Source: a virus (lineage: Duplodnaviria > Caudoviricetes). Taken from it: DNA of 44,169 nucleotides. Positions 1-42,148 of the stretch are shown one piece after another; the first letter of the stretch is position 1, and every line of letters begins with the position of its first letter. The DNA is taken from positions 1-44,169 of the IMG/VR virus record IMGVR_UViG_3300049893_001276. The stretch is one strand, 5' to 3'. The translations under genes and the position numbers were made by a program. The notes beneath the pieces were generated by a model that was not told the origin of the DNA, did no database searches, and saw only the letters and a program-made list of their open reading frames with translations.

Positions 1-204
1 TTGCAAGCCTGGGACCAATCGGTTGAGGACGGCACTACCACCGGCAAGGCTTATTGCTCGCTTCACGCGGCGCGCCAAAATGAAACAATGGGTGCAGGGG
101 ATGTGTGGTACTACCGCGGCGGGCAGGTTGAATACCTGCACACCAGCGCCTACACGCTTGTTGAAACCGCAGGCACCGCAACGGGCTACTCATCCCTGAT
201 CTGT
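1..204. repeat. Terminal direct repeat / circular overlap, left copy
   Basis: 1..204 aligns with 43966..44169, with 6 mismatches all within 81..105. Confidence 0.97.
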
Positions 205-1287
205 GACACCGACGGCGCGATCTTTGGGGATTCATCGCCAGGCCGCACCGTAATCCGCTGGCAGCGCGCACGCACCACCGCCTACACTCCGAGCTCTTTC
301 ACTCTAACTAAAGGCTTCGATTTCGGTTGCTATGGAAACGGCGACGCTCGCCACATTCGTGTTTCCATCCAGGCCACTCATGTGCTTTTCGAGAATTGTC
401 GCTGGCTTTATTCACTCGGTGGCTGGACCGGCGATTCTCATTGTATGGAGCTTTTCGAGGCGGGCGACCGCTGGGCTGAGTTTGTGGACTGTGAATTTGA
501 GCAGTCGGGCCAGACCTATTTGCAGCTAGGGAGCACGGGCCGCGGCGTTGATGGCGGAGCCGTGTTCACCCGCTGCCGATTCTTCAAAGACAACACCACA
601 GCAGGCGGCGCGGTAATGGCCCCATCGGGGGGCAGCGCTGGCATTATCTACTTCGAGGACTGTGACTTCGGCTATGACGGCAGCGGAAACAGCCGTCCGC
701 TTTCCTCCATCTTCGGTTCAAGCGGAGTGTGTGTGTACCTGCGCGGGGGGCGCTTCAATGCCACCACCGTAGGGCCGACACTTGGAGGCGACGGCAACAT
801 GGGCCGCTACTTCTGCGAGGACTGGAACGACACGCCCGGCGACAACCGGCACATCACGAACGCCGGGGTTGTGCAGAGCGAGACTAGCACGGTGCGCTCG
901 GGTGGGGGTGATAAGTCGCTCAAGATGGTGCCGAACAGTTTTATCGGTATCAACCACCAGCTTGTCGCTGGCATGTTTCCGTTCGAGATTCCAGTGAAGT
1001 GTACCGCAGCCTCCACCACCATCACCGTCTACCTTAACACTTACGGCTATACCACTATGCCGACCGCCGCCGAGCTTTATATCGAGGTTTCATACCTTAA
1101 CCACGCGACCCGCGCCACGCGCGCGCGCGTTGTCTCGACCGACGTCGTGTCGTCAAATGGTTCTTGGACCGCCTTTGACGTGACGTTCACGCCAGCACAG
1201 GCGGGGCTTGCTTATGTGGATGTGCACCTTACCAAATACGAGGCCAGCAGCGGGGTTTACGTTGACCCCGTGCCGGTTAAGAGCTAA
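1..1287 (+). CDS. 3' part of a ~511-aa virion protein, possible beta-helix tailspike/receptor-binding protein; gene begins at 43717 and wraps around
   Basis: In frame with ATG 43717 through the terminal overlap; repeated F(E/V/T)(N/D/R)CxF/W motifs typical of parallel beta-helices; lies in the structural operon. Confidence 0.65.
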   Translation: MQAWDQSVEDGTTTGKAYCSLHAARQNETMGAGDVWYYRGGQVEYLHTSAYTLVETAGTATGYSSLICDTDGAIFGDSSPGRTVIRWQRARTTAYTPSSFTLTKGFDFGCYGNGDARHIRVSIQATHVLFENCRWLYSLGGWTGDSHCMELFEAGDRWAEFVDCEFEQSGQTYLQLGSTGRGVDGGAVFTRCRFFKDNTTAGGAVMAPSGGSAGIIYFEDCDFGYDGSGNSRPLSSIFGSSGVCVYLRGGRFNATTVGPTLGGDGNMGRYFCEDWNDTPGDNRHITNAGVVQSETSTVRSGGGDKSLKMVPNSFIGINHQLVAGMFPFEIPVKCTAASTTITVYLNTYGYTTMPTAAELYIEVSYLNHATRATRARVVSTDVVSSNGSWTAFDVTFTPAQAGLAYVDVHLTKYEASSGVYVDPVPVKS

Positions 1288-2036
1288 TGGCCGAGGTATA
1301 TTTTCGAGGCAGTTTACCGATCATCGAGGGCGTGCTTGCCGATCAGCAGGACGTCCAATTCCAGGCCGGTATCCCGTACACCAAGATCACCGCGGATAGC
1401 GGGAACCAAACAGTCAGCGTCCCTGCCGGGGCGCTTCTCCTTAGCGGCAAAATCCCAACCGTTACGGCATCGGATCACAAGGTCGTCGCCGTCCCCGCTG
1501 GGTCGCTTACTCTAACGGCAAACGCCCCGACCGTTTCGGTCCAGGCTAATACAACCGTCGCAGTGCCTGCGGGATCACTGACGCTGACGGGCTTTGCGCC
1601 TACGGTTTCAGTTTCGAACAATATCTCCGTCGCAGTGCCCGCGGGTTCGCTGACTCTGACGGGGAATGCTCCAACGGTTACAGCCTCGGGCAGCCAGTCT
1701 ATTGCTGTCCCGGCCGGGGTGCTGACGCTTGTAGGACAAACACCTACAGTGGCGGCAGGGGGTGGGGCCACGGTATCTGTGCCGGCCGGCTCGCTTTCGC
1801 TGACCGGGAATGCCCCAACGGTTACAACAACGGCGCACCAGATCGTATCCGTTCCAGTCGGGAGTCTGACGCTGACGGGACAGACGCCAACAGTGACCAC
1901 CACATCCAGCGCGCTGATCAACGTCCCGGTCGGGACCCTCACGCTGGTCTCTTATGGCTTCGACGTTATTGCAGGCGACGGCTCGGCTGGGAGCTCTTAT
2001 AATTATCCAATAGCGCGGCGCAAAAGGAGACTTTGA
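1287..2036 (+). CDS. Repetitive fibre-like virion protein (8 x 24-aa VPAGSLTLTG repeats, basic C-terminus)
   Basis: 72-bp periodicity from 1419 to ~1990; ends in ARRKRRL; TAATG coupling to the upstream gene. Confidence 0.7.
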   Translation: MAEVYFRGSLPIIEGVLADQQDVQFQAGIPYTKITADSGNQTVSVPAGALLLSGKIPTVTASDHKVVAVPAGSLTLTANAPTVSVQANTTVAVPAGSLTLTGFAPTVSVSNNISVAVPAGSLTLTGNAPTVTASGSQSIAVPAGVLTLVGQTPTVAAGGGATVSVPAGSLSLTGNAPTVTTTAHQIVSVPVGSLTLTGQTPTVTTTSSALINVPVGTLTLVSYGFDVIAGDGSAGSSYNYPIARRKRRL

Positions 2037-5550: not shown

Positions 5551-6075
5551 ATGGGTGTATCCGCAGCAATTTTAGCAGGAGCCAGCACGGTCGCTACGAT
5601 CGGCTCGACCTATAGCCAGTACAAAGGCATCAAGGCCCAGGGCGATTACGAGCAGGGCGTCTACTCGCGCAACGAGGGGATGTCGAAGCTGATGGCCGAG
5701 GACGCCATATTCCGCGGCAAGAAGGCCGAGAAAAGCCAGCGCGAGACGATCAGGCAGACCATAGGCAGCCAGCGCGCCGCGCTTGCCGCTCAGAACGTGG
5801 ACTTGGAGTCAGGGTCTGCCCTTGACGTTCAGCAGGACACGGCTGCTCTTGGCGCCGAGGACGTTTTGGCGATCCGCAACAACGCCTGGCGCGAGGCGTG
5901 GGGTTACCGTGTGCAGGCATCCGAGTACGCGGCTGGGCGCGAATACGCGCGGATCAGCACGAACATGGCATCGAAAAACACCATCCTGACTGGCGGGCTG
6001 CAGATTGCCAACACCTGGGCGAATTATGCCAATGCAAGTGGGGCTAAGGTTCCCAAGAAAACAGGGAGAGAGTGA
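5551..6075 (+). CDS. Small internal virion/ejection protein (T7 gp14-like)
   Basis: Hydrophobic N-terminus, G.QRA..AA..V...SGS..DV motif, first of three ejection genes after the nozzle. Confidence 0.75.
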   Translation: MGVSAAILAGASTVATIGSTYSQYKGIKAQGDYEQGVYSRNEGMSKLMAEDAIFRGKKAEKSQRETIRQTIGSQRAALAAQNVDLESGSALDVQQDTAALGAEDVLAIRNNAWREAWGYRVQASEYAAGREYARISTNMASKNTILTGGLQIANTWANYANASGAKVPKKTGRE

Positions 6076-7778
6076 TGCCAACAGTCCCCGCTTATAGACG
6101 AAACGGAACGGCTCTAGAGTCAGTCCGACCGCCGCGCGCGACGTCCCAGGCATCCCCGGAGGCTTTTGGTATAGGAGAGTCCTCGGCGGCGCGTGATCGG
6201 GCAACGCAGCAGCTTGCCGATACTGGATTCAAAATATACCAGGCTGAGAAGCAGAAGGCCGACGACATTGCATTCTCCGACGCCGATATGCGCGCATCGG
6301 AGGCACAGCTCCGCATTGAGAACGAAGTGCGCGAAATGCGCGGCAAGGACGCGGCGCGCGGGCCCGACGACGCTTTGGTTAAGTGGACCAAGGCTTCCGA
6401 AGAAATCCGCGCTGGCATGGCCAACGACGTGCAGCGGGAGGCTATAAGCAAGGCCCTGAAGCTTCGGTGGGTGAACCTGAACAAGGTTACGCAGGAGCAC
6501 ATGGCTACGGAAACGCGCCGGTACGATGACGAGCAGTCCGAGGCGTACATCAAAACATCGCGCGATGAGGCCATCCAGAACTACACCGACCCGATGCGGA
6601 TAGAGCTTGCGGTGTACCAACAGCGGGCGGCCATCGCTAAGTATGCAGAGCGCAATGGGCTGCCGGCTGAGTGGCAGAAGATGAAAACGCAGGAGGCCGT
6701 TACTGCTACGCACGTCGGGGTTATCAACCGGATGCTGGCAAACGGTGAAGATCAGCGGGCGTCGGAGTATTACAAAACTGTTAAGGACAACGTTTCGGGT
6801 GATGCATCCGTCGCTGTCGAGAAGGCGCTCGAGGAGGGCTCAACGCGAGGCGAGGCAACGCGCAAGGCCGACAGCATCGTTGGGACGGCTCCTACTAGAG
6901 CAGAGGCGCTCGACATGGTTCGTGGCATCGAGGACCCCAAGCTGCGGGATGAAACACGCAAGCGCGTGAACGAGTACTTTGATGACAAGAAAAACGCCGA
7001 AGCAGAGGCGCGCGACCAGGCGGTTACGGATGCGGCAAATCTCGTCGAGGGTGCGAAGAGCGCAGATGTTGTCCCGCCGGCGATATGGATGCAGCTTACT
7101 GTTGGCGAGCGGTCGGCGCTTGAGTCGCGCGCACGCCAGTTGCGGTCGGGCATTGACCCGGGCACGGATTGGCAGACCTACTACGACCTCAAGAGCCTGG
7201 CGTCAACCGATGAAACGCGCACGCAGTTTCTGCGGACGAACCTGATGCTGCTTCGCGGGAAGCTCTCCGAGCCAGAGTTTAAGGAGCTCATCGGTATCCA
7301 GGCGTCCATGCGCCAGGGTGGGGAAGAGGCCGAGAAGAAGCTCGTCGGGTTCCGAACCGCCAAGCAGATCGTGGACGACTCCCTGGCGGCTGTGAAAATT
7401 GACCCATCGCCTAAGCCGGGCAGGGTCGCGGAGAAGGTGGCGCTGTTTCGGCGCCTTGTTGACGAGCAGATTCAGGCGCGCCAGGCAGAAACCGGCCGAG
7501 AGGTTAAGGGCGAAGAGGTCCAGCAAATTGTGGATAACCTGTTGATAAAGGGATATGTCCCCGGGACAGGCTTCTTCGGGGCGTTCAAAAAGCAGCGTCG
7601 GGCTTTTGAGCTGGGAGCCGGCGACAGCATCGTCATCGATCCGGACGAGGTCCCCAGGGCGGAGAGAGAGAAAATTACGGAGGCCCTGCGACGGCGCGGG
7701 ATGCAGGTTACCGAGGAAAAGATCGTCGAATACTACACGAGGAAGCTGCAACTCATGGTGACCAATGCCGGTGAATGA
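6075..7778 (+). CDS. Internal virion/ejection protein (T7 gp15 position)
   Basis: Highly helical 567-aa protein between the small and giant ejection genes; TGATG coupling. Confidence 0.65.
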   Translation: MPTVPAYRRNGTALESVRPPRATSQASPEAFGIGESSAARDRATQQLADTGFKIYQAEKQKADDIAFSDADMRASEAQLRIENEVREMRGKDAARGPDDALVKWTKASEEIRAGMANDVQREAISKALKLRWVNLNKVTQEHMATETRRYDDEQSEAYIKTSRDEAIQNYTDPMRIELAVYQQRAAIAKYAERNGLPAEWQKMKTQEAVTATHVGVINRMLANGEDQRASEYYKTVKDNVSGDASVAVEKALEEGSTRGEATRKADSIVGTAPTRAEALDMVRGIEDPKLRDETRKRVNEYFDDKKNAEAEARDQAVTDAANLVEGAKSADVVPPAIWMQLTVGERSALESRARQLRSGIDPGTDWQTYYDLKSLASTDETRTQFLRTNLMLLRGKLSEPEFKELIGIQASMRQGGEEAEKKLVGFRTAKQIVDDSLAAVKIDPSPKPGRVAEKVALFRRLVDEQIQARQAETGREVKGEEVQQIVDNLLIKGYVPGTGFFGAFKKQRRAFELGAGDSIVIDPDEVPRAEREKITEALRRRGMQVTEEKIVEYYTRKLQLMVTNAGE

Positions 7779-10700
7779 GTACGACGAAATCATTTCAGGG
7801 GGCAAGGTTCCGAACAACGGCAACGAATATCTTCAGATGGCGGAGGAGGACGGGGCCGACCAGCGCAGCAATCTGCAGCAGTCTTTGTTCAGCGCAAGCA
7901 CAGCGGACCCGGCGCGCATGGCGCAGATCGACGAAATGGCCCGCAAGGCCAAGCTGCCGACTGCGGTTGTTGAGCGCAACTTTGACGAGGTAAGCCGGCG
8001 GTCGTCCCTTGAGGATATCGACTACGACAAGATCATAGACCAGACCCCCGCCCTGGCATCATGGCTTGAGGACCCTGAGAACGCGGCCGTTGGCCGTGAC
8101 GACATCGAGGCCCTCGGCAAGCTCGAGCGCGGCGCCAGGCGCATACTCCCCAAATCAGCAGACCCGAGCCGTGGGGCATTCGGCCGTGCCATAGCTACCG
8201 GCTGGAGCGACCTTACCGCCTCCACATGGCACCTCGCCGCCGTCTATGGGCTCACAGACCCAGCAGAAGCAGCACAACGCGTTGCCGAGGCTAACGCCAA
8301 GGCAGGGACGCTGCGGGCACAGAAGCCTCCATACGCGCTCGAATTCGACCAGATCATGCAGGACGAGGGGGGCGACGTAGACCGGGCGGTTGAGCGATTC
8401 AAGAGCTCCTTTGGCGAAATGCAGGACGGGCGGATATACCAGGGACTCATCGACTACAACGCCGGCAAGATTCAAACCGTAGCCGAGGGGCTAGAGATGC
8501 TCTGGTCAGCCGTAAGCCGGCCGCAAGGGTTGGCTTATTCTTCCCTGGAAAGCCTGGCGCATTCGTTCCCGAGCCTGGTTACCGGCGCTGGGTTTGCTGC
8601 CGCAGGAGCGGCTCTCGGCCCGCAGGCATCCGCGGCATCCGGGATTGCCGGGCTTATGGCTGGGACATTCATTGGCGAGACCCCCGTTGAGGTCGGAGCC
8701 TGGATCAACCAGGCAATGGCCGAGCGCGGAGTTGATATCACATCGGCCGAGGGGGTTGCGGCGGCGTATTCGGACGCGGCTCTGATGGCTGAGATTCGCG
8801 GGGAGGCGGAGCGCAAGGGTATTACCACCGCCGGGGTTGACGCGCTGTTTTCGGCTTTTGCCGGTAAACTAGCTGCCGGCGGGCTTACCTCTAAGGCTAT
8901 TGGAAAAGCGACAAAAACGGCCCTCGTTGCCGCTGATGTTGCGACCCAGGCCGTAGGGGAGGGGGCCAGCGAGTTTGCTGGCCAGGTGGCCGCACGCAAT
9001 GGCCTGCAGGGGGTATCCGTAGGGGAGGCCATCCAGGAGGGCATCGTCAGCCTTGGGCATAGCGTTGGGGACACCGTCGTTGGTACGAGCGTGCGGAGGG
9101 CCTTTAGCCTGGAGCCGGGTGCGGCTGCTGGGGAAATGCTCACCGAGACGGAGCGGGCGCTTAAGGCCCTCGGTGGGGCGAGAGCTCTTGAAGAGGTCGG
9201 CGCCGCGGTAGGCGAGCTTAAGAACGCACAGAACGCTCCAGAGCGCCTCCAGGCGCTAATTGAGACAGCCGGCGGGACGGAGGGCGGGGCGGTTTACTTC
9301 CAGGCCGCACAATGGGACGAGTACTGGCAGGCCCAGGGACTATCCCCGGCTGCAGCGGCGGCTCAAATCCTCGGCGACAACGGCAAGGCATACTACGAGG
9401 CCAAGGCGGCGGACGGCCAGATGGCTGTTCCGCTTGCCGACTACGTGGCGAAGGTTGCCACGAGCGAGCACTTTGAAGGGCTGCTGCCGGCTGCGCGCAC
9501 GAGTCCCGATGGCATGAGCTTGCGGGAGGCGTCCGAGTTTCTAAAGGCGCTCCCGGCCACGATGGATGAACTGGCGGCCGAGGCTGCCGGGAAAACCTCC
9601 CCGATCGATGAGGCTGACGAGCAGATCCGCTCTCAGGTAACTGAGCAGCTTATCCAGGCCGGCTTTGACCCGTCTACGGCCGAGACCTATTCGCAGGTTT
9701 ATTCCGGAATCCGCGTCATGGCGGAGCGCGCTGGCGTTGACCCGCAGGAGCTGTACGAACGCTATGGTCTGCAGATTCGGCGATTTGAGGGCGCCCAGGA
9801 TGCCCCAGGCGGGGCGATCTCCCAGGGGCCAGGTAGTCCCCTACCCGGTGAATTCACCGGACAGGCATGGCGCGCGCCTACCGGGTACAGGCACGGGGCC
9901 AAAGACACCGCCGCCGATGTCGTGAGGTTTGAGACCGAAGAGCTCGGGAACGATCTAGCTGTCCCGCCAGACGTCATGGCGGAGCTTGCCGGCAGGGCCG
10001 CTTCTGACATTGTTTGGGTGACGCGGAAGAAATCTGACGCAGCCCGCTATGGGAAACCAGAACAACAGCAGATGCCGCCTGGATCGCGCATTATTGCGGA
10101 GGACGGGGATGGCGGGTATTTGGTGTTAAAGCCAAAATCTGTCACCGACACGCCTGAATTTAAGGCGTGGTTCGGCACCTCTAAGGTCGTTGATGAAAGC
10201 GGCCAGCCGAAGGTCCTATACCACGCGACGAGGGCGTCGTTTAGAAAATTCATGAAGAGGTTTAACCTGGCGGGGCACTTCGGGACCGTTGATGCCGCGA
10301 ACGATAGGACAACCGGGTTACGTGAGGACGCGCAGGTTCCTTTTGAAGAGGGCGGATTACGCGGCGAGAACATTATGCCGGTGTATCTGAGCATCCAGAA
10401 TCCCGTCCGGATGAAGGACGTCCACTTCGATGAATACGGCACCATGATCGAGGACCTCATAGAAAGCGGGACGTTAGAGCACAGCGATCTGCCTGTCCCG
10501 TTTGCCGCTCGGTATGATTTCAAAACGCGCAAAGCCGAGCAAGAGGCCATCACAGCGACCATTGAGGCCCTCAAGCAGAGGGGCTATGACGGCATCGTTT
10601 ATGAGAACCGCATCGAGGCCCCGGGGAGCGATTCGTGGATACCGTTCGAGCCGAATCAGATTAAGAGCGTGTTTAACCGCGGCACGTTCGACCCGAAGAG

Positions 10701-13700
10701 TCCGGACATCCTATTCCAAGGCGAGGCCCCGCCGGCGCCGGTGTTCTACTCAAATCTGGAGCGCGTTATTGAAGCAAAGATGCCGGCATCTGCTCCGGTA
10801 TCGCAGGTGCTTGGGATCATCAAATCCTCCGGGGTAAAGCAGGACGAGCTCGACCAGGTCGGCCTCGCTGCGTTCCTAGAGGGCAAAACGAAGGTTTCGC
10901 GTGATGAGGTTCTCGCCTACATCCGAGAAAACACGGTGAAGATCGAAGAGGATATTTTGGGGGACGTCCCGCTCGGGCATAAAAATCTGAGCGATGCTGT
11001 CCGCGAGCTCGCCGTTGAACTGTACAACGAAGAACTGCACAATCGCCTCCAGGAGATCGACATCGACGCCCTGGAAGCCGAGGCTGCGGACTACGCGATA
11101 ACGCAGAGCGACGCAAGTCCCAACATCTGGATAATAACATTCAAGCAATCGGGCGACACCCGCAGCGTCTATGGGTCCAGGGAGGAGGCCGTTGCTCAAG
11201 CAGAAGAAATAGCAGAAACAACACACATCCCCCGGGCTGTTAAAGCCGTCGAAGATAGGATCATGGAGCAACTGCAATTCACAACTTTCGCGCAGAAGGC
11301 CCAGGCAGAGCTGGAACGATCCGCCGATCAGATCGCAGATGCCCTATACAAAGAGGCGATCGAAGAATACCTAAGCAGGCAGGACCTCACGGATGTAAAA
11401 AAGGAGGCGGCCGCGTATGTGGTGTTACCAGACGAGCCCGACGCCTGGGGGGTTCTGTTTAGAAAGTCAGGGCACAACGCCAATGGCTTCGCATCAAAAG
11501 AGGCTGCCACGAAATGGGCCGATGAGAGCGTGCCGGCTGAAATCGAGCGCGCTATGGGTGCAGCTCGCGCGGCGGCCAGATTCCATGTCAGCCGCGAGCC
11601 GTTTTTAGAGAAAGCCAGGAAGGTAGTGGGCCTTCACGAAACCAGGGATGCCGAGGGGGTGTCAGACATCCCGCGCTTCAACGAGCCTGACCTGCAAATA
11701 GCCGGTGGCGAGAATTACCGGGAACGGCTGTTTATGCTTCCAGCAGATTTTGTTAAGACGACTTCCGCTGACCGCATAAAGCTCGGGAAGCCCAGGTTAA
11801 ACCTGATCCAGAACGTCCGTGACATCGCTTTCTCTACCACAGAGTGGGCCGTCTTGTATAACGAAAAAGAGATTGGGCAAATAGTATTCAGACCGTCTCG
11901 CGCGATCGACCGGGACTTCTTCAAAGAATTTGATGGGGAAGACGCTTACATTGTCTACTCAAGGAACCAGAGCCCTTCGCTATATTCCGTCGGGGCATCA
12001 TCCTCCCCAATATATAAAACGCTGGAAGAGGCGCTTGCTGGTGTCAGGGCATCCGAAGCGGTGGGAATGCAAAGAGACGAGCAGTATACCCAGGGCCATT
12101 TCCCGAGACACCCGAACCTTCTATTCCACACCAGGACCACGGAGCACACGCTGCCAGACGGCAAGCGGATGTTCTTTCTGCAAGAGGTGCAGTCCGATGC
12201 GCTGCAGGGGCTCCGGAAGCTCAACATAAAGCGCGCGGAGGGCAAGGAGCTTAATGGAGACGAGCAGGCAAAGCTCGACATCCTTTCCAAGTGGCCGTTC
12301 CAAAACACGTGGGGGGAGCTGGCGCTTAAGCGAATGATCCGCCTCGCGGCCGAGAAGGGCTTTGACTACATCGGTTGGACCACTGGCGAGCAACAGGTCG
12401 ATCGCTACAACAATGCCCTCCGCGAAAGAGTCGACGAGATCGAGTGGACCAAGAACGAGAAGGGCGTGCGACTGGTTGGGTACAAGAAAAAGTACGAAGT
12501 CGCACCAACCCTCACACAGATGTTGCGCGACATCCACGCGACATTTATAGACTCGAGCTCTGATGGGCCCACCGTACATTTTGGTGTGGACAAAAGAGTG
12601 TCATTCGACACCAGAGCCGAGGCCCGCGAGTACATCGAGAGTGTGTGGAAAGAAGACCCTGAGAACTGGAAGCAGATGGTCGTCGACACCAACGAAAAGG
12701 AAACCGAGCTATCCGACGCCATAGGCAAGGCGATGGCGGGCAAAATCCTCTCCGACCCGAATCAGTCTGGAACGATCGAAGGCGACGACATCGCTATCTC
12801 AGACACGGGCATGGCCGGGTTTTATGACCGGATGCTGGTGTCTGCGGCGAACAAGATCGGCAAGCGATTCGGGGTGAAGGCTACCATCACGCAGCTCGAA
12901 GGGCAGGACACAACGAAGTTTCCTACATTCAGGGAGCTCAACGAGCACGATCGGGAGGCTCTCCAGGGGGCCGAGGACTTTGCGGATGGCGGGACTCCGG
13001 TCGCTGGCACGACTGCCGTCACAATAGACGGGGTCAAGAAGTACGTCACATTTATTTTGTCCGGAAACGGCTTAAACATTCTCGACAAAGAAGCTTATGC
13101 GGAATTCAGACCGGACGATGCTCTGACATGGGGAAGCGCAGAAGAGGCACAGCGCGTCCTGAAGGAGCGGTGGTACAAGCTTAAGTTTTGGGCGAGTCTC
13201 CATGACCTCACCGGCGAAGAGCACAGCATCCTTCCAATAGCAGAAAAGCCCGGGGCGCCAGAAATAGAGCTCGCGCAAGAAGAGGTCGGCACGGAAATGC
13301 GCTGGGTCGTGCGCGAGAAAGAAGGCGAAGTCGTGCTTGGCGTTTTCGATACCAAGGATGAGGCCCAGGAGCGATTCGACACGATTCAGAAAATGCGCGC
13401 GCCGTCCGCCGTCCACGCTCTTGAGCTAACGCCCGCCATGAAGGAGTCCGTGATTAAGGAAGGCTTCGCGCTGTACCAAGGCGAGAAGGAAACCCCGCGC
13501 GGGCAGTTGCGCTTTGGACCCAACCGACAGATAAACATAGACCTGCTTAAGACGGCTGACCTGTCGACGTTCCTGCATGAGACGGGGCACTTCTACCTTG
13601 AGGTGCTTGGCGACCTGGCCGGCCAGGCTGACGTCCCAGCTCAAATGCGCGACGACTTTCTGACGGTGGTTAATTGGATTGGTTTCGAGAGCGCCGAGGC

Positions 13701-16700
13701 ATGGAGGGCTGCCACCCCAGAGCAGCGCCGCGACGCACACGAGCAATTCGCCCGTGGCTTCGAGACGTACCTTATGGAAGGCAAGGCCCCGTCGGCTGCT
13801 CTGCGCTCGGCATTCGCCCGTTTCCGGGCATGGCTAATCTCTATCTACCGCCAGGTGCGCGGCCTGAATGTTTCACTCACACCCGAGGTCCGCACCGTAT
13901 TCGACCGGATGCTGGCGACGGATGCTGAGATATCAGAGGCGTCCAGAGAGCAGAGCATTCAGCCTCTATTCCCCGATCTGGTCGCGCTTGGGTTCAACGC
14001 GGATGATGCCGCCGAGTATGCTGCGGCAATCGAAGATGCGCGCACGTCTGCGGAGGAAGAGCTCTCATCTAAGCTGATGGCCGAGGTCGCCCGCGAGCAA
14101 AAAGAGTGGTGGAAGGAGCAGCGTGCCGGCGTCCGCGACGAGATCGAGAAGCAGGTAAACGGGATGAAGGTTTACGTTGCCATCGCGCGTCTTCAGAAGG
14201 GTAAGCTCCCCGACGGATCACCGCTGCCCGAGGGCGTGTCCGCGTTCAAACTAGATAAGGACGCGCTGCTTTTGGACTACGACAAGGCCCTCCTTGCGCG
14301 CCTCCCTCGCCCTTATGTTTACGCCGTAGACGGTGGCATCCACCACGACGTCGCGGCCGAGCTTCTTGGATTTGGCTCTGGCGACGAGATGGTGATGGCG
14401 CTCATCAACGCGCCGAAGCGAGAGGCCCTAATCGAGCGCATGACTGACCAGCGCATGAAAGAACTGCACGGGGATATGGCGGCCGATGGGAAGCTGCCGC
14501 TTGAGGCCATGAAGGCCGTGCACAACGAAAAGCGCAGTCAGCTACTAAGGCGCGAGCTTGAAATCCTCGCCTCTGAAAACCTCTCGAAGCTCAAGGGATT
14601 GACGAAGAAGGTCGCCCGGCCAATTCCGCCTGTATCAGCAGTGCGGGCGCAGGCGGAGCGCATAATCGCATCCAAGCGCACGCGCGATATAAAGCCGAGT
14701 GTCTACCAGCGCGCAGAGGCCAAGGCCGCGCGGGATGCTGTGGATGCCATGCTTCGCGGGGATTTTGAGGCCGCGTTCGTGGCTAAGCAAAGGGAGCTGT
14801 TGAACAGCGAGCTCTACCGCGCTGCCGTTAATGCCAACGATGAGACCGCGAAGATCGTTCGCTATATGTCTGGATTCACGAAGAAGAGCGCACGCGAGCG
14901 AATAGGCAAGGCCGGCGCCGGCTACCTGGACCAGATCGACTCCATCCTTGAGCGGTTCGATTTTAGTCGAGGCATGACACTCGGAGCCATTGACAAGCGT
15001 GTTGCCCTCGCTCAATGGATCGAGCAGCAGAGGGCTATGGGAGTCGAGCCAGAGCTCCCGGATACCGTTTTAAACGAGGCATTCCGTCGGCACTACAAAG
15101 ACCTCAAATACGAAGAGCTCGTTGGAATCCGTGACGCCGTAAAGCACGTCGCGCACCTGGCGCGCCTTAAAAATAAGCTGCTCAAGGCAGGCCGTGACCG
15201 CGACCTTCGCAACGCCATAGAAGAGGCCGTGGCGTCTATCTCGGCGAACGCAAAGGGGCTCAAGCGCAAGCCCATAGAAACGCGCACGCCCCAGGAGGAC
15301 TTCGCGGACGGGGTCGTTGGTATATTTGCGTCCCACCGTAAGATGGCCAGCCTCCTGCGCGTTATGGATGGGAACCAGGACGGCGGGGTGATGTGGGAGC
15401 TGGTCATGCGTCCAGCGAACGAGGCCGCCGACGCCGAAGTGTCCATGAACGAGCAGGCGACGGTGAAGCTAAAGGAGCTCTTCTCGGTTTACAGCCAAGC
15501 GGACCTATTGCGGATGTACAAGCGCACCCATATCGAAGGGGTCGGTGGGCTGACGAAGATGGGGCAGCTCATGGTTGCTTTGAATTGGGGCAACGAGGAC
15601 AACCGCACGAAGCTCATGGAAGGCCGCGGGTGGAGCGACGATCAAGTACAGAGCATCCTGGCACAGCTAGACGAGCGCGACTGGAAATTCGTGCAAAGCG
15701 TGTGGGACTTCATCGACTCTTACTGGTCCGAGATCAAGGCGCTTGCCGAGCGGGTAAACGGGGTCGCCCCGGAAAAGGTCGAGGCTGCCCAGGTGATCAC
15801 ACCCTTCGGGACGTTCCGAGGCGGGTACTTCCCGCTCAAATATGACGACCGCCTGGCGCCCAAGGCGTATGCGAACCAAGCGAAGGAGCTCGCCGAGCAG
15901 GCTATGCACGGCGCGTTCTTTAGAGGCTCCACGCGTCACGGCCATCGCAAGGCGCGCGTTGAAGGCGTGAAGCTACCGGTGCGCCTAGACTTCGGCGTGA
16001 TCTTCGAGCACGTCGGCCAGGTGATCCACGACCTGTCGCATTATGAATACATGATTGACGCGAACCGCCTGCTTGGTGACTCGGATATGCAGAGCTCGAT
16101 CATCGATTACCACGGGCACGAGGTCTACAAGCAACTGCGCGCGACCATCAAGGACATCGCCGCCGGCGACGTGCCGGCACAGACACACTTCGAGCGCGCT
16201 TTAAACTGGATTCGCACGGGGACTAGTATTGCGTCGATGGGATGGAACTTGATGACCTCCGCAATGCAGCCGCTTGGGTTGACGCAGTCGATGGTCCGCG
16301 TTGGACCCAAGTGGGTGGCGCGCGGGATGTCCCGCTGGTTCTCTGATGCCGCGCGCATGGAGGATACTGCACGCTGGATACAGCAGCGGTCGACGTTTAT
16401 GCGGATGCGCGCTAAAACGCAGATGCGCGAGATCAATGAAATCCGTAATAAGACCAGGCTGCGCGGACAGATTTCTGCGATGGAGGACACCTACTTCTGG
16501 CTGATAACCAGGCTGCAGCTTGTGGCCGACATCCCGACGTGGCTTGGGGCCTACGAGAAGGCGCTGTCCGAGAATCCAACCGATGAGGCGCGTGCAACCG
16601 CTCTTGCGGATCAGGCGGTGCTGGACTCCCAGGGGGGTGGTCAGGTAAAGGACCTCGCTCAGATTCAGCGTGGCGGGCCGGCCTGGAGGCTGTGGACCAA

Positions 16701-17208
16701 CTTCTATTCGTTCTTCAACACGACGTTCAACCTAACGGCAGAATCGTTGTCGCGGACAAACATTAAAGACCCGCACAGCATCGGGCGCCTCGGGGTTGAT
16801 CTTCTCCTGCTTTACGTTGTGCCGGCCGTCTTGGGGTATGCGCTTCGAAGCGCGCTCAAACCTGGGGACGAGGATGACGAGTTTATTGTTGGGGTGGCTA
16901 AGGAGCTGGCTGCATATACAGCCGGCACGATGGTCGGCGTGCGCGAAATCTCGGGGGCGATCCAGGGCTATTACGGATATGAGGGGCCTGCAGGCGCGCG
17001 CTTCTTTGCGGAGGCGTCGGGCCTTGTTAAGCAGATATCACAGGGAGAGGCAGACGGAGCCTTCTGGAGATCGCTTAACGACACGGCCGGTATCCTGCTG
17101 CACTATCCGTCTACTCAGATGGGGAGAACCCTGCGTGGGATATTGGCCCTCACCGACGGCGATACGGACAATCCTTCGGCGTTGTTAGCTGGGCCGCCGC
17201 GACAATGA
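7765..17208 (+). CDS. Giant ejection / large polyvalent protein (3147 aa) with ART-PolyVal-like and HExxH metallopeptidase domains
   Basis: TPEFKAWFG.SKVVD..G.P...YHAT...PVYL...NP...GYDG...F.P.QIKS (10144..10722); ADLSTFLHETGH with downstream HEQFA (13576..13755); position of T7 gp16. Confidence 0.85.
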   Translation: MPVNEYDEIISGGKVPNNGNEYLQMAEEDGADQRSNLQQSLFSASTADPARMAQIDEMARKAKLPTAVVERNFDEVSRRSSLEDIDYDKIIDQTPALASWLEDPENAAVGRDDIEALGKLERGARRILPKSADPSRGAFGRAIATGWSDLTASTWHLAAVYGLTDPAEAAQRVAEANAKAGTLRAQKPPYALEFDQIMQDEGGDVDRAVERFKSSFGEMQDGRIYQGLIDYNAGKIQTVAEGLEMLWSAVSRPQGLAYSSLESLAHSFPSLVTGAGFAAAGAALGPQASAASGIAGLMAGTFIGETPVEVGAWINQAMAERGVDITSAEGVAAAYSDAALMAEIRGEAERKGITTAGVDALFSAFAGKLAAGGLTSKAIGKATKTALVAADVATQAVGEGASEFAGQVAARNGLQGVSVGEAIQEGIVSLGHSVGDTVVGTSVRRAFSLEPGAAAGEMLTETERALKALGGARALEEVGAAVGELKNAQNAPERLQALIETAGGTEGGAVYFQAAQWDEYWQAQGLSPAAAAAQILGDNGKAYYEAKAADGQMAVPLADYVAKVATSEHFEGLLPAARTSPDGMSLREASEFLKALPATMDELAAEAAGKTSPIDEADEQIRSQVTEQLIQAGFDPSTAETYSQVYSGIRVMAERAGVDPQELYERYGLQIRRFEGAQDAPGGAISQGPGSPLPGEFTGQAWRAPTGYRHGAKDTAADVVRFETEELGNDLAVPPDVMAELAGRAASDIVWVTRKKSDAARYGKPEQQQMPPGSRIIAEDGDGGYLVLKPKSVTDTPEFKAWFGTSKVVDESGQPKVLYHATRASFRKFMKRFNLAGHFGTVDAANDRTTGLREDAQVPFEEGGLRGENIMPVYLSIQNPVRMKDVHFDEYGTMIEDLIESGTLEHSDLPVPFAARYDFKTRKAEQEAITATIEALKQRGYDGIVYENRIEAPGSDSWIPFEPNQIKSVFNRGTFDPKSPDILFQGEAPPAPVFYSNLERVIEAKMPASAPVSQVLGIIKSSGVKQDELDQVGLAAFLEGKTKVSRDEVLAYIRENTVKIEEDILGDVPLGHKNLSDAVRELAVELYNEELHNRLQEIDIDALEAEAADYAITQSDASPNIWIITFKQSGDTRSVYGSREEAVAQAEEIAETTHIPRAVKAVEDRIMEQLQFTTFAQKAQAELERSADQIADALYKEAIEEYLSRQDLTDVKKEAAAYVVLPDEPDAWGVLFRKSGHNANGFASKEAATKWADESVPAEIERAMGAARAAARFHVSREPFLEKARKVVGLHETRDAEGVSDIPRFNEPDLQIAGGENYRERLFMLPADFVKTTSADRIKLGKPRLNLIQNVRDIAFSTTEWAVLYNEKEIGQIVFRPSRAIDRDFFKEFDGEDAYIVYSRNQSPSLYSVGASSSPIYKTLEEALAGVRASEAVGMQRDEQYTQGHFPRHPNLLFHTRTTEHTLPDGKRMFFLQEVQSDALQGLRKLNIKRAEGKELNGDEQAKLDILSKWPFQNTWGELALKRMIRLAAEKGFDYIGWTTGEQQVDRYNNALRERVDEIEWTKNEKGVRLVGYKKKYEVAPTLTQMLRDIHATFIDSSSDGPTVHFGVDKRVSFDTRAEAREYIESVWKEDPENWKQMVVDTNEKETELSDAIGKAMAGKILSDPNQSGTIEGDDIAISDTGMAGFYDRMLVSAANKIGKRFGVKATITQLEGQDTTKFPTFRELNEHDREALQGAEDFADGGTPVAGTTAVTIDGVKKYVTFILSGNGLNILDKEAYAEFRPDDALTWGSAEEAQRVLKERWYKLKFWASLHDLTGEEHSILPIAEKPGAPEIELAQEEVGTEMRWVVREKEGEVVLGVFDTKDEAQERFDTIQKMRAPSAVHALELTPAMKESVIKEGFALYQGEKETPRGQLRFGPNRQINIDLLKTADLSTFLHETGHFYLEVLGDLAGQADVPAQMRDDFLTVVNWIGFESAEAWRAATPEQRRDAHEQFARGFETYLMEGKAPSAALRSAFARFRAWLISIYRQVRGLNVSLTPEVRTVFDRMLATDAEISEASREQSIQPLFPDLVALGFNADDAAEYAAAIEDARTSAEEELSSKLMAEVAREQKEWWKEQRAGVRDEIEKQVNGMKVYVAIARLQKGKLPDGSPLPEGVSAFKLDKDALLLDYDKALLARLPRPYVYAVDGGIHHDVAAELLGFGSGDEMVMALINAPKREALIERMTDQRMKELHGDMAADGKLPLEAMKAVHNEKRSQLLRRELEILASENLSKLKGLTKKVARPIPPVSAVRAQAERIIASKRTRDIKPSVYQRAEAKAARDAVDAMLRGDFEAAFVAKQRELLNSELYRAAVNANDETAKIVRYMSGFTKKSARERIGKAGAGYLDQIDSILERFDFSRGMTLGAIDKRVALAQWIEQQRAMGVEPELPDTVLNEAFRRHYKDLKYEELVGIRDAVKHVAHLARLKNKLLKAGRDRDLRNAIEEAVASISANAKGLKRKPIETRTPQEDFADGVVGIFASHRKMASLLRVMDGNQDGGVMWELVMRPANEAADAEVSMNEQATVKLKELFSVYSQADLLRMYKRTHIEGVGGLTKMGQLMVALNWGNEDNRTKLMEGRGWSDDQVQSILAQLDERDWKFVQSVWDFIDSYWSEIKALAERVNGVAPEKVEAAQVITPFGTFRGGYFPLKYDDRLAPKAYANQAKELAEQAMHGAFFRGSTRHGHRKARVEGVKLPVRLDFGVIFEHVGQVIHDLSHYEYMIDANRLLGDSDMQSSIIDYHGHEVYKQLRATIKDIAAGDVPAQTHFERALNWIRTGTSIASMGWNLMTSAMQPLGLTQSMVRVGPKWVARGMSRWFSDAARMEDTARWIQQRSTFMRMRAKTQMREINEIRNKTRLRGQISAMEDTYFWLITRLQLVADIPTWLGAYEKALSENPTDEARATALADQAVLDSQGGGQVKDLAQIQRGGPAWRLWTNFYSFFNTTFNLTAESLSRTNIKDPHSIGRLGVDLLLLYVVPAVLGYALRSALKPGDEDDEFIVGVAKELAAYTAGTMVGVREISGAIQGYYGYEGPAGARFFAEASGLVKQISQGEADGAFWRSLNDTAGILLHYPSTQMGRTLRGILALTDGDTDNPSALLAGPPRQ

Positions 17209-19558: not shown

Positions 19559-19594
19559 CCGCCCGGGCCAGCCACCCGGGCGGCTTTCCTTTTC
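19559..19594 (+). terminator. Intrinsic terminator between convergent operons
   Basis: Stem ccgcccggg / cccgggcgg with 7-nt loop, followed by ctttccttttc. Confidence 0.8.
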
Positions 19595-20036
19595 ACGGCT
19601 CGTCGTGGCAAAGGCGGCCGGCCATGTGGTCCATTTCGTGCTGAAATATTCTGGCGTCCATGCGCTTCAGTGTCCGCTCGATCGTTGTATTCAGTCCGGC
19701 CATAGTCGAGTATTCGACGTCGACCACCGCCCATCGCTTCTTTGGTTTGAATATCGTCTGCCCCAATCCATCGAGCACACTTAGACACCCTTCGTGCGTT
19801 TCAAGGAGCTCCTTACCGTGCCGCACGATCCTCGGGTTGATGCAGACGGCAGGGCCAAAAGAAAACCGCGCAATAAAGAACGCGCCCGGTAGCCCAACTT
19901 GATTAGCGGCAAGCCCTGCACCATGTTTGGCTTTTAGTAGGCGCCACATATCAACGATGGTAGATGCTGCCGGGCGATCGGCCATCGGTTCGGCGGGCGT
20001 TAACAGGCGCTTGTCAGGGGCCAGGACCACGTCCAT
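19593..20036 (-). CDS. def: Peptide deformylase
   Basis: All three PDF motifs: GAGLAANQVG, EGCLS, QHEMDH; start at MDVVLAPD overlaps the upstream TAA. Confidence 0.95.
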   Translation of the reverse strand: MDVVLAPDKRLLTPAEPMADRPAASTIVDMWRLLKAKHGAGLAANQVGLPGAFFIARFSFGPAVCINPRIVRHGKELLETHEGCLSVLDGLGQTIFKPKKRWAVVDVEYSTMAGLNTTIERTLKRMDARIFQHEMDHMAGRLCHDEP

Positions 20037-20251
20037 TAGCTGGTTCTCCTCGGGGTTGTCGGTGTGATTTTGATTCTCTCGATTTTCAAATCGTATGCCT
20101 TTTTGAGCGTTGGCCATGCGACCGGCGGGTTGTATATGCAGCAGAACGATTGGATTGTTGCGCGGCGGCTTGCCCGGATTGTTTGCAGGAACCTGAACCC
20201 GCTGCGGTCTACAACGACCCAGGCGTTTTCGTCGGTGGATAGTTTGTGCAT
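20036..20251 (-). CDS. Hypothetical protein
   Basis: Stop overlaps the def start (TAATG). Confidence 0.5.
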   Translation of the reverse strand: MHKLSTDENAWVVVDRSGFRFLQTIRASRRATIQSFCCIYNPPVAWPTLKKAYDLKIERIKITPTTPRRTS

Positions 20252-20481
20252 TGGTGAGCATCTCCATCTTGTGGTGGTTTAAATACAGAATTGCAAAGAT
20301 GGCGGGGGTCCATTGCAAGCGTTAGGTCGATACTCTGAATGGCGGAATATTGCATTTGAGCATAACACCTAACGTTCGGGCCACATGGTACGCCGCGGTG
20401 TGAACAATACTCACTCGTGATGAGACTGATGGCTTCCAACAGAGCGGTCCGTGCCAGACAGAGAGCATGCCTGTCACGCAT
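20209..20481 (-). CDS. Hypothetical protein
   Basis: Tiles the early operon; overlaps both neighbours. Confidence 0.4.
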   Translation of the reverse strand: MRDRHALCLARTALLEAISLITSEYCSHRGVPCGPNVRCYAQMQYSAIQSIDLTLAMDPRHLCNSVFKPPQDGDAHQCTNYPPTKTPGSL

Positions 20482-22391: not shown

Positions 22392-22757
22392 TTATTTCTC
22401 AAGCTCTGCAGCCTTGCAAACAGAGCAGTTGTCCGGATAATAAAGGTGGTCGCAGATGCCGGTCGGATTTCTGACGGCTATGGGCCCGTGGCAATGATGG
22501 CAAACCCGGCCGGGGCCGATGTCCCCAAGGGCCGGCTCCTTGGGGGCAGCATCTCGGAGCTTGAGCTCATCTATGCGATCAAGCAGCGCGGCGATCGTCT
22601 CCTCCAGGGCCTGCACAACAATCCGCGAGCTCCGCCTAACGACATCTATCTCGACAGCATCCTCTCGTATTTTTCTGACGCGCATATACTGTGCCCCAAG
22701 GAGTGCCCCGATCGCAGCCCAAGCAACGGCGGCTATAATTTGATCGTTCATTCGTTC
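22392..22757 (-). CDS. Hypothetical protein with N-terminal TM and C-terminal Cys/His cluster
   Basis: IIAAVAWAAIGALLGA; C.HC...IA.RNP.G.CDHLYYP..C..C; exact start uncertain. Confidence 0.6.
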   Translation of the reverse strand, partial: ERMNDQIIAAVAWAAIGALLGAQYMRVRKIREDAVEIDVVRRSSRIVVQALEETIAALLDRIDELKLRDAAPKEPALGDIGPGRVCHHCHGPIAVRNPTGICDHLYYPDNCSVCKAAELEK

Positions 22758-23128
22758 CTCGCTATGGCCGCATTCGCCCAAAAAACGACCTCCTCTAGGT
22801 GATGCACGGCCAGGTTAAGCTCGCTGGAATCCGGAGCCTTATCCAACAACAGCAGCGCGAGCTGCTTTGCCGCGTCACGGATCGCTATATAACGAACCGC
22901 CTGGCCCTCTTTCGGCGGGTGGTATGAAAAACACCGTTCGATATCGCTTCTGTTCATGTCCGTCCCCCATGTTTTTAAACCCATCACGGCGTCATGCAGG
23001 CGCGCGTATCCATCAAGAAACGCGCCCTGCTCCTGAATTACTGTCCTTGCCAGCTCTATCCTGCAGTCCTTGCACAACTGCGCGTTGGCGCAATGCACGC
23101 ATATCTCTATGCCGCCGATCTCTACCAT
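22748..23128 (-). CDS. Acb2/Tad1-like hairpin domain (22748..22957) in frame with an upstream CxxC-CxxC domain
   Basis: F.YH.P...Q...Y..IR...K.LA......P...E..LA...LEE...WANAAIAR; SD-like GGGGA before the internal ATG at 22957. Confidence 0.7.
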   Translation of the reverse strand: MVEIGGIEICVHCANAQLCKDCRIELARTVIQEQGAFLDGYARLHDAVMGLKTWGTDMNRSDIERCFSYHPPKEGQAVRYIAIRDAAKQLALLLLDKAPDSSELNLAVHHLEEVVFWANAAIARNE

Positions 23129-23613
23129 GACCACCCTCGGCGGATGCAGACAGTGGCGACCCCGATCACAGCGCCTTGCAGATACTCGACCCACCACCAA
23201 TCAAGGCGAACCCCCTGATACCCGCGCTCCGTGCTGGGGACTCTTTGTTTTAAAAACGGCAGGTCGTGGTTTGACATATAAACACCGAGCATCCACCACG
23301 CGCCAACGATCGACGCCAGGATGCCGGCCTTGTAGAAGCAGAACGCCTGCGCGAATCCGTAGCTGGCGACGTCGTCCCAATCGCGCTCTTCTATCTCATC
23401 GAGGTTAAAGTGCAGAATCCCACAGAGCAGCAGCGCCGGCGGGATCATCCACCAGTCCCATGCGTATAGCGCAACGGCCAGCGGTATGCCGTAACGGCGT
23501 GCCGGTTTCCACCCGCGGCCTAGAGCGCCCGGGAGCATCTTGTATCCGCCGCCGCCCCATCGATACAGAAACGCGCATAGATCAATAAACAGGACGTCCC
23601 AAACCCAGGTCAT
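23122..23613 (-). CDS. Multi-pass membrane protein
   Basis: Several Trp-rich hydrophobic segments; start MTWVW after ggagg, overlapping the upstream stop. Confidence 0.65.
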   Translation of the reverse strand: MTWVWDVLFIDLCAFLYRWGGGGYKMLPGALGRGWKPARRYGIPLAVALYAWDWWMIPPALLLCGILHFNLDEIEERDWDDVASYGFAQAFCFYKAGILASIVGAWWMLGVYMSNHDLPFLKQRVPSTERGYQGVRLDWWWVEYLQGAVIGVATVCIRRGWSW

Positions 23614-24218
23614 AGCGCCTCCACGGTAACGTCTAGCATCCCCCATGCCACTCCGTTTTTTGTAACACCACGCTGCCCGCCTAGTGCGTCGAATGCCGCA
23701 GGCGAAAGGTCGATTACAACGCCGCGCCGAGCGGCTGCTTTCCCAGGGCCGTAGTCTGTGTGCCGAACGATCACACACCGGCCGCTCCCGTCGGTTCTGC
23801 ACACCAGGTAGTCTCCACCGAAATCGCGCCGGCGCATGGCCGCTGTAAACGCGCGCTCGTCGTACTCATCGCCGCTGGCTGTCACAACGCCGGGATTGCC
23901 CTCGGCTAAGGTTGATTCCCTGGTGTAGTAAGTAGCCTTGCCATCTATGCCAGCGTGAGCGACCTGTGCCGCGCTCGTTACCAGCAACAGCAGCAGAACG
24001 AACCGCCGAACCTTCGGGATTTTCACGATCATGTTTTTCTTTTCGTTGTCCATCGACGCCTTGCGGACCGCGTTGATTGCGTGTAGCGCGTAGCCGTGCG
24101 CTCCGGTCAGGCCGCTGCCCGAGTTGACCATCATCGCCATCGTTTCAAACGTTGGCTCAGACGTCACGCTAACACCGCCCTCCGGTTTATCCTCGAACGT
24201 CAGAACGATCTTTGCCAT
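23610..24218 (-). CDS. RlpA-like (double-psi beta-barrel) lytic transglycosylase with internal signal/TM segment
   Basis: GKATYY...TASG..YD....TAA...V.V...D.GP...IDLS.AAF..L; alternative start MIVKIP at 24032 gives a classic signal peptide ending AHA. Confidence 0.8.
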   Translation of the reverse strand: MAKIVLTFEDKPEGGVSVTSEPTFETMAMMVNSGSGLTGAHGYALHAINAVRKASMDNEKKNMIVKIPKVRRFVLLLLLVTSAAQVAHAGIDGKATYYTRESTLAEGNPGVVTASGDEYDERAFTAAMRRRDFGGDYLVCRTDGSGRCVIVRHTDYGPGKAAARRGVVIDLSPAAFDALGGQRGVTKNGVAWGMLDVTVEAL

Positions 24219-24375
24219 CAGGGTCCTTTCTCTGTTCGTAAAACTTGCAGCCCTTGTCGACGACGTCCGTCGGGATAGGCCGAGGACTTTTCCCGAGCCT
24301 CTCGAAATATCTGCAGAGGCCCGGGAACTCGGTCCCGCGGATGTCGATGTACTTACAGCTCCAGCAGCTTGCCAT
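24187..24375 (-). CDS. Small Cys-containing hypothetical protein
   Basis: CWSC...C.YF...GC.FY. Confidence 0.5.
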   Translation of the reverse strand: MASCWSCKYIDIRGTEFPGLCRYFERLGKSPRPIPTDVVDKGCKFYEQRKDPDGKDRSDVRG

Positions 24376-24571
24376 CTTCGACCAGCTTCGTATTCTTCCG
24401 CTCGTACTCGATAACCGCTGCCAGCGGATAGAATACGGAGCCTCCGATTTTCATATACCGCGGGCCGCGCGGGGGGTGCTTGTATCGCCAGTTGGCTATT
24501 GTCCCTGGAGATTTGCCCCACCGCCGCGCGAGCTGTTCGGTCGTTAATCGAGCTCCGCCGTCCTCTATCAT
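24353..24571 (-). CDS. Excisionase/AlpA-like HTH protein
   Basis: LT..QLA.RW..S..T..NWR.....GP.Y.KIG..V.Y. Confidence 0.8.
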   Translation of the reverse strand: MIEDGGARLTTEQLARRWGKSPGTIANWRYKHPPRGPRYMKIGGSVFYPLAAVIEYERKNTKLVEDGKLLEL

Positions 24572-38288: not shown

Positions 38289-38608
38289 CGCAGCAGGCAT
38301 TCGTTCAGAACGCGGCTGACCCGCAGCAGGTTAAAGAGGGCGGGACGCGGGCGCAGATATTGCGTCGGCGTGAGCTCGACGACGTCAGGTTCTTGCTGGC
38401 GAACCCGTCCGGGCGTCGGTTCATCTGGCGCCTGCTTGAGCACTGCAGCGTGTTCAAAACGATCTGGCACCCGAGTGCTCTGATCCACCACAATTCAGGA
38501 AAACAGGACGTCGGACATTTCATTATGGGCGAGGTTACAGAGGCAGACGCAGAAGCTTTTATTCAGATGATGGTCGAGGCAAAGCAAACGGAGAACAACA
38601 ATGGCTGA
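38285..38608 (+). CDS. Bbp19-like protein
   Basis: D...L.....GRRF.WRLL....VF........N.G....G; lies between portal and scaffold. Confidence 0.75.
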   Translation: MTQQAFVQNAADPQQVKEGGTRAQILRRRELDDVRFLLANPSGRRFIWRLLEHCSVFKTIWHPSALIHHNSGKQDVGHFIMGEVTEADAEAFIQMMVEAKQTENNNG

Positions 38609-42145: not shown

Positions 42146-42148
42146 AAT

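Follow-up and report, generated by a model that had tools for sequence, protein, structure and literature searches.

Hydrophobic-x-glutamine tags join the cargo modules of a giant Bbp10-family phage protein, follow one clade of peptidase-like domain, and are candidate self-cleavage sites

The window analyzed here is the whole 44,169-nucleotide stretch at positions 1 to 44,169 of the IMG/VR virus record IMGVR_UViG_3300049893_001276 (Duplodnaviria; Caudoviricetes), a podovirus genome of the BPP-1 type. Our subject is one giant open reading frame (ORF) at 7765..17208 (+ strand), which encodes a 3147-amino-acid (aa) internal virion (ejection) polyvalent protein of the Bbp10 family (phrog_9880; Bbp10 homology), and a short tag, [L/F/Y/M]-x-Q, that is conserved at module junctions in this family and may be a self-cleavage site. 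The genes are ordered head-tail connector, GP7 capsid, Bbp16 and Bbp19-like, tail tube, two internal-virion genes, the 3147-aa ORF, and tail fibre. Because the two internal-virion genes lie directly upstream (5551..7778, + strand; a T7 gp14-like protein of 174 aa and a protein of 568 aa; PF24072 below cut-off at E 1e-4, and phrog_418, 'internal virion protein'), the giant gene was assigned to the ejection operon, where it follows the tail-tube and internal-virion genes and precedes the tail fibre gene. Gene order around the Bbp10-type gene is identical in BPP-1 and AF.

Residues 1901-3147 matched 49 GenBank phage records, including BPP-1 Bbp10, Jess A, Carin1, and AF. BPP-1 Bbp10 is 37.8% identical over aa 1901-3140 and covers 99% of aa 1901-3147, which places the protein in the Bbp10 family, and the identity to the Caulobacter phage Jess A protein is 41.7%. 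Bbp10, which belongs to the epsilon15 group, is listed as an IVP-D homologue in Table 2 of PMC4819975, where such proteins are described as carrying passenger domains. Like other multi-domain polyvalent proteins, the chain combines LPD22 and ART-PolyVal, both above Pfam cut-offs. From family membership and synteny, we infer that the 3147-aa protein is packaged and ejected into the host; a polyvalent protein of phi24B, gp47, was detected in virions (bioRxiv 10.64898/2026.04.10.717836).

Homologues were collected with aa 1895-2400 as the query: of 7995 candidates scored, 3906 proteins matched at E<=0.001. The analysis was run on the best 120, of which 117 had both anchors; three lacked one and were dropped. 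In addition, 80 viral loci were fetched, of which eight had no anchor, leaving 72 anchorable loci (six of them duplicates). All 117 homologues have an N-terminal core and a C-terminal core around a variable region of 51-2054 aa. The modules swapped into this region include ART, GNAT, GGDEF, RelA/SpoT, zeta-like, PBECR5, MuF_C, and LPD3/5/13 domains.

The layout of the 3147-aa protein follows this plan, with all features on the + strand. The N-terminal conserved core (aa 1-676, 7765..9792), whose end was mapped from conservation in homologues, carries LPD22 at aa 41-126 (7885-8142; PF18834, E 6e-15). Junction 1, I-S-Q at aa 685-687 (9817..9825), occupies the family tag position in degenerate form. 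It precedes a ~100-aa cargo unit with no Pfam match and no family assignment (9826..10134), which is joined at ~aa 790, by an untagged fourth junction, to an ART-PolyVal module (10135..10719; PF18760, E 5e-15, at aa 810-971); the related junction in homologue P0049 reads F-N-Q. The ART module ends in L-F-Q, which is junction 2 (aa 983-985, 10711..10719) and to which seven terminal-module alignment ends and six first-module starts project. A ~920-aa cargo module (10720..13479) leads to junction 3, L-Y-Q at aa 1903-1905 (13471..13479), seven residues ahead of the R-G strand of a zincin-like peptidase domain (13498..13944; MPTase/CLCA_X). The motif of this domain, H1938-E1939-x-x-H1942 with E1993, was assigned from invariance in homologues and a structural model. 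The C-terminal conserved core (13945..17205; phrog_9880 match at aa 1893-3138, no Pfam match) is presumed to form part of the ejection conduit, a role taken from synteny and from PMC4819975. G+C content is 0.63-0.66 at 8001-10000 and drops to 0.55-0.57 at 10001-13000, which fits foreign cargo.

The ~920-aa module is present in 37 of the 117 homologues and is recognizable by the blocks FYS.., HF..N.L.H.R, EE[IV]QSD, and W..ALKR. No family was found for it in Pfam, NCBIfam, or Atlas, and a scan of viral contigs gave no confirmed relative. It holds five small repeated subdomains (at aa ~1120, 1228, 1600, 1775, and 1847) of the pattern W-x-V ... F-x-S/T-x-E-E-A, none of them flanked by tags and with weak DUF2188/DUF7336 matches. 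A GNAT-like pattern considered for this module was unsupported, with all five single-sequence profile comparisons below 1%.

A sequence-only reading of this DNA had proposed that the giant protein is a self-processing polyprotein with cargo bounded by Q-G motifs. The motifs it had picked out are present: ISQG at 9817 (aa 685), LFQGE at 10711 (aa 983), LYQGE at 13471 (aa 1903), HETGH at 13576 (aa 1938), HEQFA at 13738 (aa 1992), and the DNA ct.t.ccaaggcgag shared by the second and third. Q-G itself occurs at chance level in the protein (13 copies, 11.2 expected), and a second ISQG, at aa 3091, lies within the conserved C-terminal core. The pattern L[FY]QGE, with 0.005 occurrences expected, is found twice, above chance in a comparison made post hoc. 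Because of the chance-level count and the recurrence of ISQG, Q-G alone is uninformative, and the question was decided on homologues. On homology, LFQ985 and LYQ1905 are true module boundaries, as had been proposed. ISQ687 is correctly positioned but has a poor score on the family matrix (-1.6, rank 45 among 141 Q sites); that matrix was trained on a set including the two good sites of this protein, so that their top ranks are circular, unlike the N-junction count given below. The 'ART-like module' placed at aa 685-983 does contain ART-PolyVal but comprises two units, with the ~100-aa unit separate.

Alignment of the homologues bore out the expectation that variable inserts start and stop at the motif. 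The tag lies at most 14 residues before the R-G-x-I strand of the peptidase in 110 of the 117 homologues (chance for such an interval, ~0.11) and in 65 of the 72 anchorable viral loci. Internal junctions were set independently of the motif, by projecting each module end from proteins in which that module is last. A tag then lay within six residues of 73 of 113 internal junctions defined by module ends (background, 0.11) and within 10 residues of 52 of 63 module starts (background, 0.17). Across the 117 proteins and 50 loci, 80 of the 88 internal junctions with at least two supporters were tagged (background, 0.137). A good tag was also found within 40 aa of the end of the N-terminal core in 46/117 homologues (control, 0.029). 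The tag rule is thus strong in the Bbp10 family and imperfect in the 3147-aa protein. Modules shift between terminal and internal positions among homologues. One homologue, P0117, has a variable region of 51 aa, in which the cargo bay is almost empty but three F-Q tags remain, together with a relic ART tail; it resembles a deletion derivative of a P0110-like gene. In the natural variants L037, L051, and L039, the Q tag just before the peptidase is replaced by L-F-S or L-F-H.

The tag follows the type of peptidase rather than the cargo. A search with the ART module only returned 119 new proteins of many architectures, of which seven without a parsable tail were dropped. The ART end is conserved (F-D-P-x-x-P-D-I), and the tail that follows depends on the host protein. 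Tails were of the hydrophobic-x-Q type in 60/65 cases in the 28 proteins matching this peptidase profile versus 4/260 in the 84 nonmatching proteins, and a BLAST version of the same split gave 58/63 with the peptidase versus 6/262 without it. Nonmatching proteins had R-F-S, T-K-S, T-E-S, R-A-Q-S, and similar tails. Tail type was uniform within a protein for 336 of 442 pairs in 70 proteins (shuffles reached at most 172). Likewise, the 920-aa module carried the tag Q in 35/37 cases with the peptidase versus 1/12 without. Two proteins, P0134 and P0142, have this peptidase and neither core, and all 13 of their parsed ART tails are tagged.

The nearest ART relatives of the 3147-aa protein (up to 57% identity) belong to other protein types and have RFS, RFA, RYA, or RYS tails. 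On a quick tree of 121 ART modules, built with tails excluded and poorly resolved outside the supported clade, the tag was unclustered (28 changes; shuffled mean, 30.2), and the ART of this protein nested with eight untagged, RFS-type ARTs (Shimodaira-Hasegawa-like approximate likelihood ratio support, SH-aLRT, 99). Since the tag is unclustered and this ART sits among untagged ones, its tail has likely been remodeled to match the host protein. A tag ended 9/9 ART modules located downstream of the peptidase. Behind one core extension it ended 13/13 internal copies, a count that omits two of the 20 proteins with this extension because they were not located. In P0213, an inserted ART module (aa ~1565-1740) separates the HExxH helix from the third-ligand helix and has a tag on each side.

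Within the peptidase-like domain, H1938, E1939, H1942, and E1993 are invariant in 117/117 homologues. The third ligand proposed at HEQFA therefore finds its candidate in E1993, the neighboring H1992 being conserved in only 111/117. We modeled aa 1890-2077 from a 62-sequence alignment (mean predicted local distance difference test score [pLDDT], 83). The model has strands at 1913-1917 and 1923-1927 followed by the HExxH helix, and HExxH and the distal Glu both fall in predicted helices (H44-63 and H96-116), as in a gluzincin motif. A1902-Q1905 forms a third strand beside the peptidase sheet, with a pLDDT of 62 for the block and its pairing partner unspecified; this predicted strand may stand in for a part absent from the construct. 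In a single-sequence fold, the tag stretch was disordered (pLDDT about 35). Profile matches to Spartan and FtsH reached only E 0.4. Residues 700-1000 of Bbp10 are a seed of CLCA_X, which was grouped as sister to the self-cleaving CLCA proteases (PMC3650047). The present clade has HExxHxxxE in 103/117 homologues instead of the CLCA_X consensus HExxHxxxD and is classed as a CLCA_X variant because membership rests on Bbp10 as the published seed. The domain is a putative active zinc peptidase.

We propose, with a probability of about 0.6, that the tag is a cleavage site of the built-in HExxH domain and that the protein cleaves itself, releasing its modules. An autoproteolytic site would be expected to change with the peptidase clade and to be imposed on incoming modules, as is the case for this tag. 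The conserved phage core holds unrelated modules inserted end to end, joined by hydrophobic-x-glutamine tags that go with one clade of HExxH domain. The domain would read the tag and cut its own chain, probably on the N-terminal side of the glutamine; the cut would probably follow ejection, and the modules would be freed as separate enzymes in the host bacterium. Autoproteolytic release of domains was predicted for MPTases in 2017 (PMC5512222). The self-processing part of the sequence-only reading is thus supported by a motif that bounds inserts and co-segregates with the peptidase clade; the Q|G bond it suggested, by analogy with viral polyprotein proteases, is not. Glycine follows the terminal-tag Q in just 27 of 110 cases (D 16, P 14, R 13, S 13), and over 156 sites the next residue is G 32, S 29, P 21, D 20, and R 14, a spread unlike the small-residue preference of 3C-like sites.

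The bond cut is more likely x|Q. I-L-F-Q aligns with the I-R-F-S, I-T-K-S, and I-T-E-S tails of other proteins, which would place Q at P1' (RF|S, TK|S, TE|S). The I-T-E-S tail resembles the T4 head-protease motif, which is cut after E. N-terminal Q or S escapes the bacterial N-end rule, and L or F does not. The residue after Q, variable and often proline, would be an odd P1', which also argues for x|Q, and so does the location of the main specificity site of most metallopeptidases at S1' (PMC6949598). The spacer between tag and R-G strand is only 2-3 residues in 18/117 homologues, a length that suits a hairpin of the tag onto that strand.

Several points weigh against self-cleavage. The strand formed by the tag in the model is equally explained by a structural role. 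Foldseek returned no match at E<=0.001 for the single-sequence or the alignment-based model, and in VIA the best Z was 6.3, to an unrelated chain, with zincin-like folds at only Z 3.8-5.0. The tag carries little information, occurring about nine times per 1000 residues everywhere, and a high-scoring copy (Q1128) lies inside the large module; a good tag directly follows the N-terminal core in just 46/117 homologues. The 3147-aa protein itself has a degenerate junction 1 and no tag where its two units meet at ~aa 790. Because homologues are related, the counts overstate the number of independent events, and the well-supported branches of the ART tree force just two tag changes. Cutting at the tags of P0213 would split the peptidase itself. 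Some ART proteins, such as P0126, P0128, P0138, and P0146, have consistent linkers and no HExxH, so linkers do not always depend on a peptidase in cis. Full-length virion RNA polymerase (vRNAP) of N4, an IVP-D homologue with an HExxH domain, was purified without degradation (PMC13434306), and N4 vRNAP, ArdC, and TraC1 are described as delivered uncut (PMC5512222). Cleavage data for the Bbp10 family were not found in the accessible literature.

In five ART proteins (P0126, P0127, P0128, P0140, and P0179), a longer repeated linker comes after the ART tail and reads either [W/F]-D-E-x-x-H-P-R-x-x-x-G-x-F or N-H-D-x-x-G-R-F. Proteins with this longer linker mostly have no HExxH, and the linker is possibly a capsid-targeting motif behind a head-protease site.

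The tag could instead be a docking strand that is never cut and pairs with the peptidase-like sheet, completing the fold or keeping the domain inhibited, and serves to order, tether, or thread cargo during packaging or ejection. Co-segregation with the domain is accounted for equally well in this way, and the predicted strand at A1902-Q1905, the 2-3-residue spacers in 18/117 homologues, and the intact N4 vRNAP (PMC13434306) agree with it. Against docking, the general-base glutamate is invariant in 117/117 homologues, one docking site could not hold up to seven tags at once (P0134), and excision is a better fit to the tags flanking the P0213 insert. We consider docking rather unlikely, and less so than cutting by another enzyme, either a phage head protease in trans or a host protease. 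Such an enzyme would explain the HExxH-free linker proteins, some of which have I-x-E|S tails like the T4 head-protease motif, and a 208-aa gene of the window (38601-39227, + strand) is labelled 'protease' in PHROGs (phrog_458). This label is unsupported, as the product has no peptidase match in Pfam, NCBIfam, or PDB; its N-terminus is of low complexity, and it resembles a scaffold protein and is probably the one of this phage. A Pfam scan of 54 window ORFs found no peptidase family, the hosts of the relatives are very different, and the tag goes with the HExxH clade also where the protein architecture differs. We therefore regard an outside protease as improbable.

Two further explanations were considered. 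The tag might be a DNA recombination or microhomology site for cassette swapping, with the amino acids as a by-product, an alternative that the sequence-only reading had also raised. The LFQGE and LYQGE copies in this gene share 13/15 bases, and CAA is overused at the terminal Q (29/59 versus 28% overall; internal tags, 10/34). Avoidance of CCWGG was rejected as the cause of this bias, CCAGG occurring 109 times in the window. Codon use at 59 distinct terminal sites takes in every one of the six Leu codons and both codons for Gln, the Q codon is shared in only 15 of 34 within-protein pairs, and, whichever of ten flanking positions is compared, tag copies within a protein resemble each other no more closely than copies from different proteins do. 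For two Q-G-E stretches, the probability of identical codons is 0.13; the repeat is absent from the 20 largest direct-repeat families of the gene, and of 77 within-protein pairs in the family only one, that of the 3147-aa protein, has both residues following Q in common, against 0.86 expected, so that the shared G-E and its DNA are no more than chance gives. Conservation of the tag thus acts at the protein level and not at the DNA level, and the conserved DNA repeat of a cassette recombination system was not found. The DNA shared by the two motifs here is most likely due to chance, although a recent event confined to this gene may lie behind it; for the family, recombination is largely refuted and very improbable. 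Equally hard to credit is the view that the terminal tag alone counts, being part of the peptidase fold, and that internal copies are neutral relics of modules that were once last. Movement of modules between terminal and internal positions and the degenerate and missing tags of the 3147-aa protein would suit it. Internal tags are nevertheless kept at 80/88 junctions, and because the 13/13 copies behind a diverged linker and the 9/9 modules downstream of the peptidase are all tagged, internal tags are not mere relics of the terminal position.

The self-cleavage proposal can be extended, tentatively and with more doubt than belief, to a cargo bay that excises itself under a protease code. Polyvalent lineages would each have their own tag and their own built-in peptidase, module tails would be rewritten accordingly, and in the Bbp10 family the cargo would loop out of the peptidase itself. 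The first helix and strand of the peptidase would then be the end of the N-terminal core, cuts before each Gln would free enzymes with stable N-termini, and the ejection conduit, then in two halves, would be held together by the nicked peptidase. The counts above show the tail code statistically; the loop-out topology comes from a by-eye match in two cargo-free proteins, P0201 and P0237, and profile comparisons of the end of the N-terminal core with a first peptidase half were not significant (probability under 1%).

Elsewhere in the window, an Acb2/Tad1 hairpin domain (PF24729, E 2e-17) at 22748-23200 (- strand) marks a likely anti-CBASS/Thoeris sponge gene. A phage-encoded peptide deformylase lies at 19593-20318 (- strand; aa 96-239 of a 241-aa ORF whose true start is probably later), and an RlpA-like lytic transglycosylase domain ends a 358-aa ORF at 23610-24686 (- strand) in the early region, adjoining RecT/YqaJ. 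Tail-gene ORFs at 1-2036 (+ strand) and 41953-44164 include a 428-aa protein and a 249-aa protein of repeated V-x-V-P-A-G-x-L-x-L-T-G units, neither with a match in Pfam or PHROG.

Whether, and at which site, the zincin-like MPTase (the most common polyvalent-protein domain) cleaves its own chain has been an open question since 2017. Candidate bonds are now exact in the culturable phages Jess A, Carin1, AF, and BPP-1 and thus accessible to gel and mass spectrometry. As a parsing rule, the tag would allow giant phage proteins that lack annotation, which number in the thousands, to be split into individual candidate counter-defence modules, such as the 920-aa module. The Bbp10 family and the idea of autoproteolysis were known; the literature searched, with subscription journals largely outside the search, yielded neither the tag nor its link to a single peptidase clade, nor the predicted bond, nor any description of junction tags in polyvalent proteins or of Bbp10-family processing.

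Members of the Bbp10 family (Jess A gp39, AF gp16, and Carin1 gp32) have the same cores, operon position, and tag, each with different cargo, and are annotated as lysin, crystallin-motif, or hypothetical proteins. The cargo of BPP-1 Bbp10 is flanked by F-D-Q608 and F-Y-Q768; Jess A has L-T-Q587 and L-A-Q791, and Carin1 has L-N-Q903, L-F-Q1492, and Y-N-Q1605. The I-x-E|S-like tails of other polyvalent proteins resemble the T4 gp21 motif. Picornaviral 3C sites are cut at Q|G, and L-F-Q-G looks alike in this protein, but the G is unconserved in the family and both the enzyme type and the predicted bond differ; the likeness is coincidental. Phage-type polyvalent proteins with an MPTase (PMC5512222) likewise combine LPD22, ART-PolyVal, and HExxH/E in a giant protein of the virion operon; autoproteolytic release is proposed there, and the main text does not use the word 'linker' and names no cleavage site; a description of a clade-specific junction tag was not found there. 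CLCA_N members self-cleave at a conserved site, and CLCA cuts once (PMC3650047), in contrast to the multiple tags seen here. In jumbo phages, one short motif likewise marks the cuts in packaged proteins, as in the processing of ejection proteins by the SPN3US head protease gp245 (PMC10052503). The protease of those phages is a separate protein that takes off N-terminal propeptides while the head matures, whereas in the Bbp10 family the candidate enzyme belongs to the same chain and the tags flank internal cargo.

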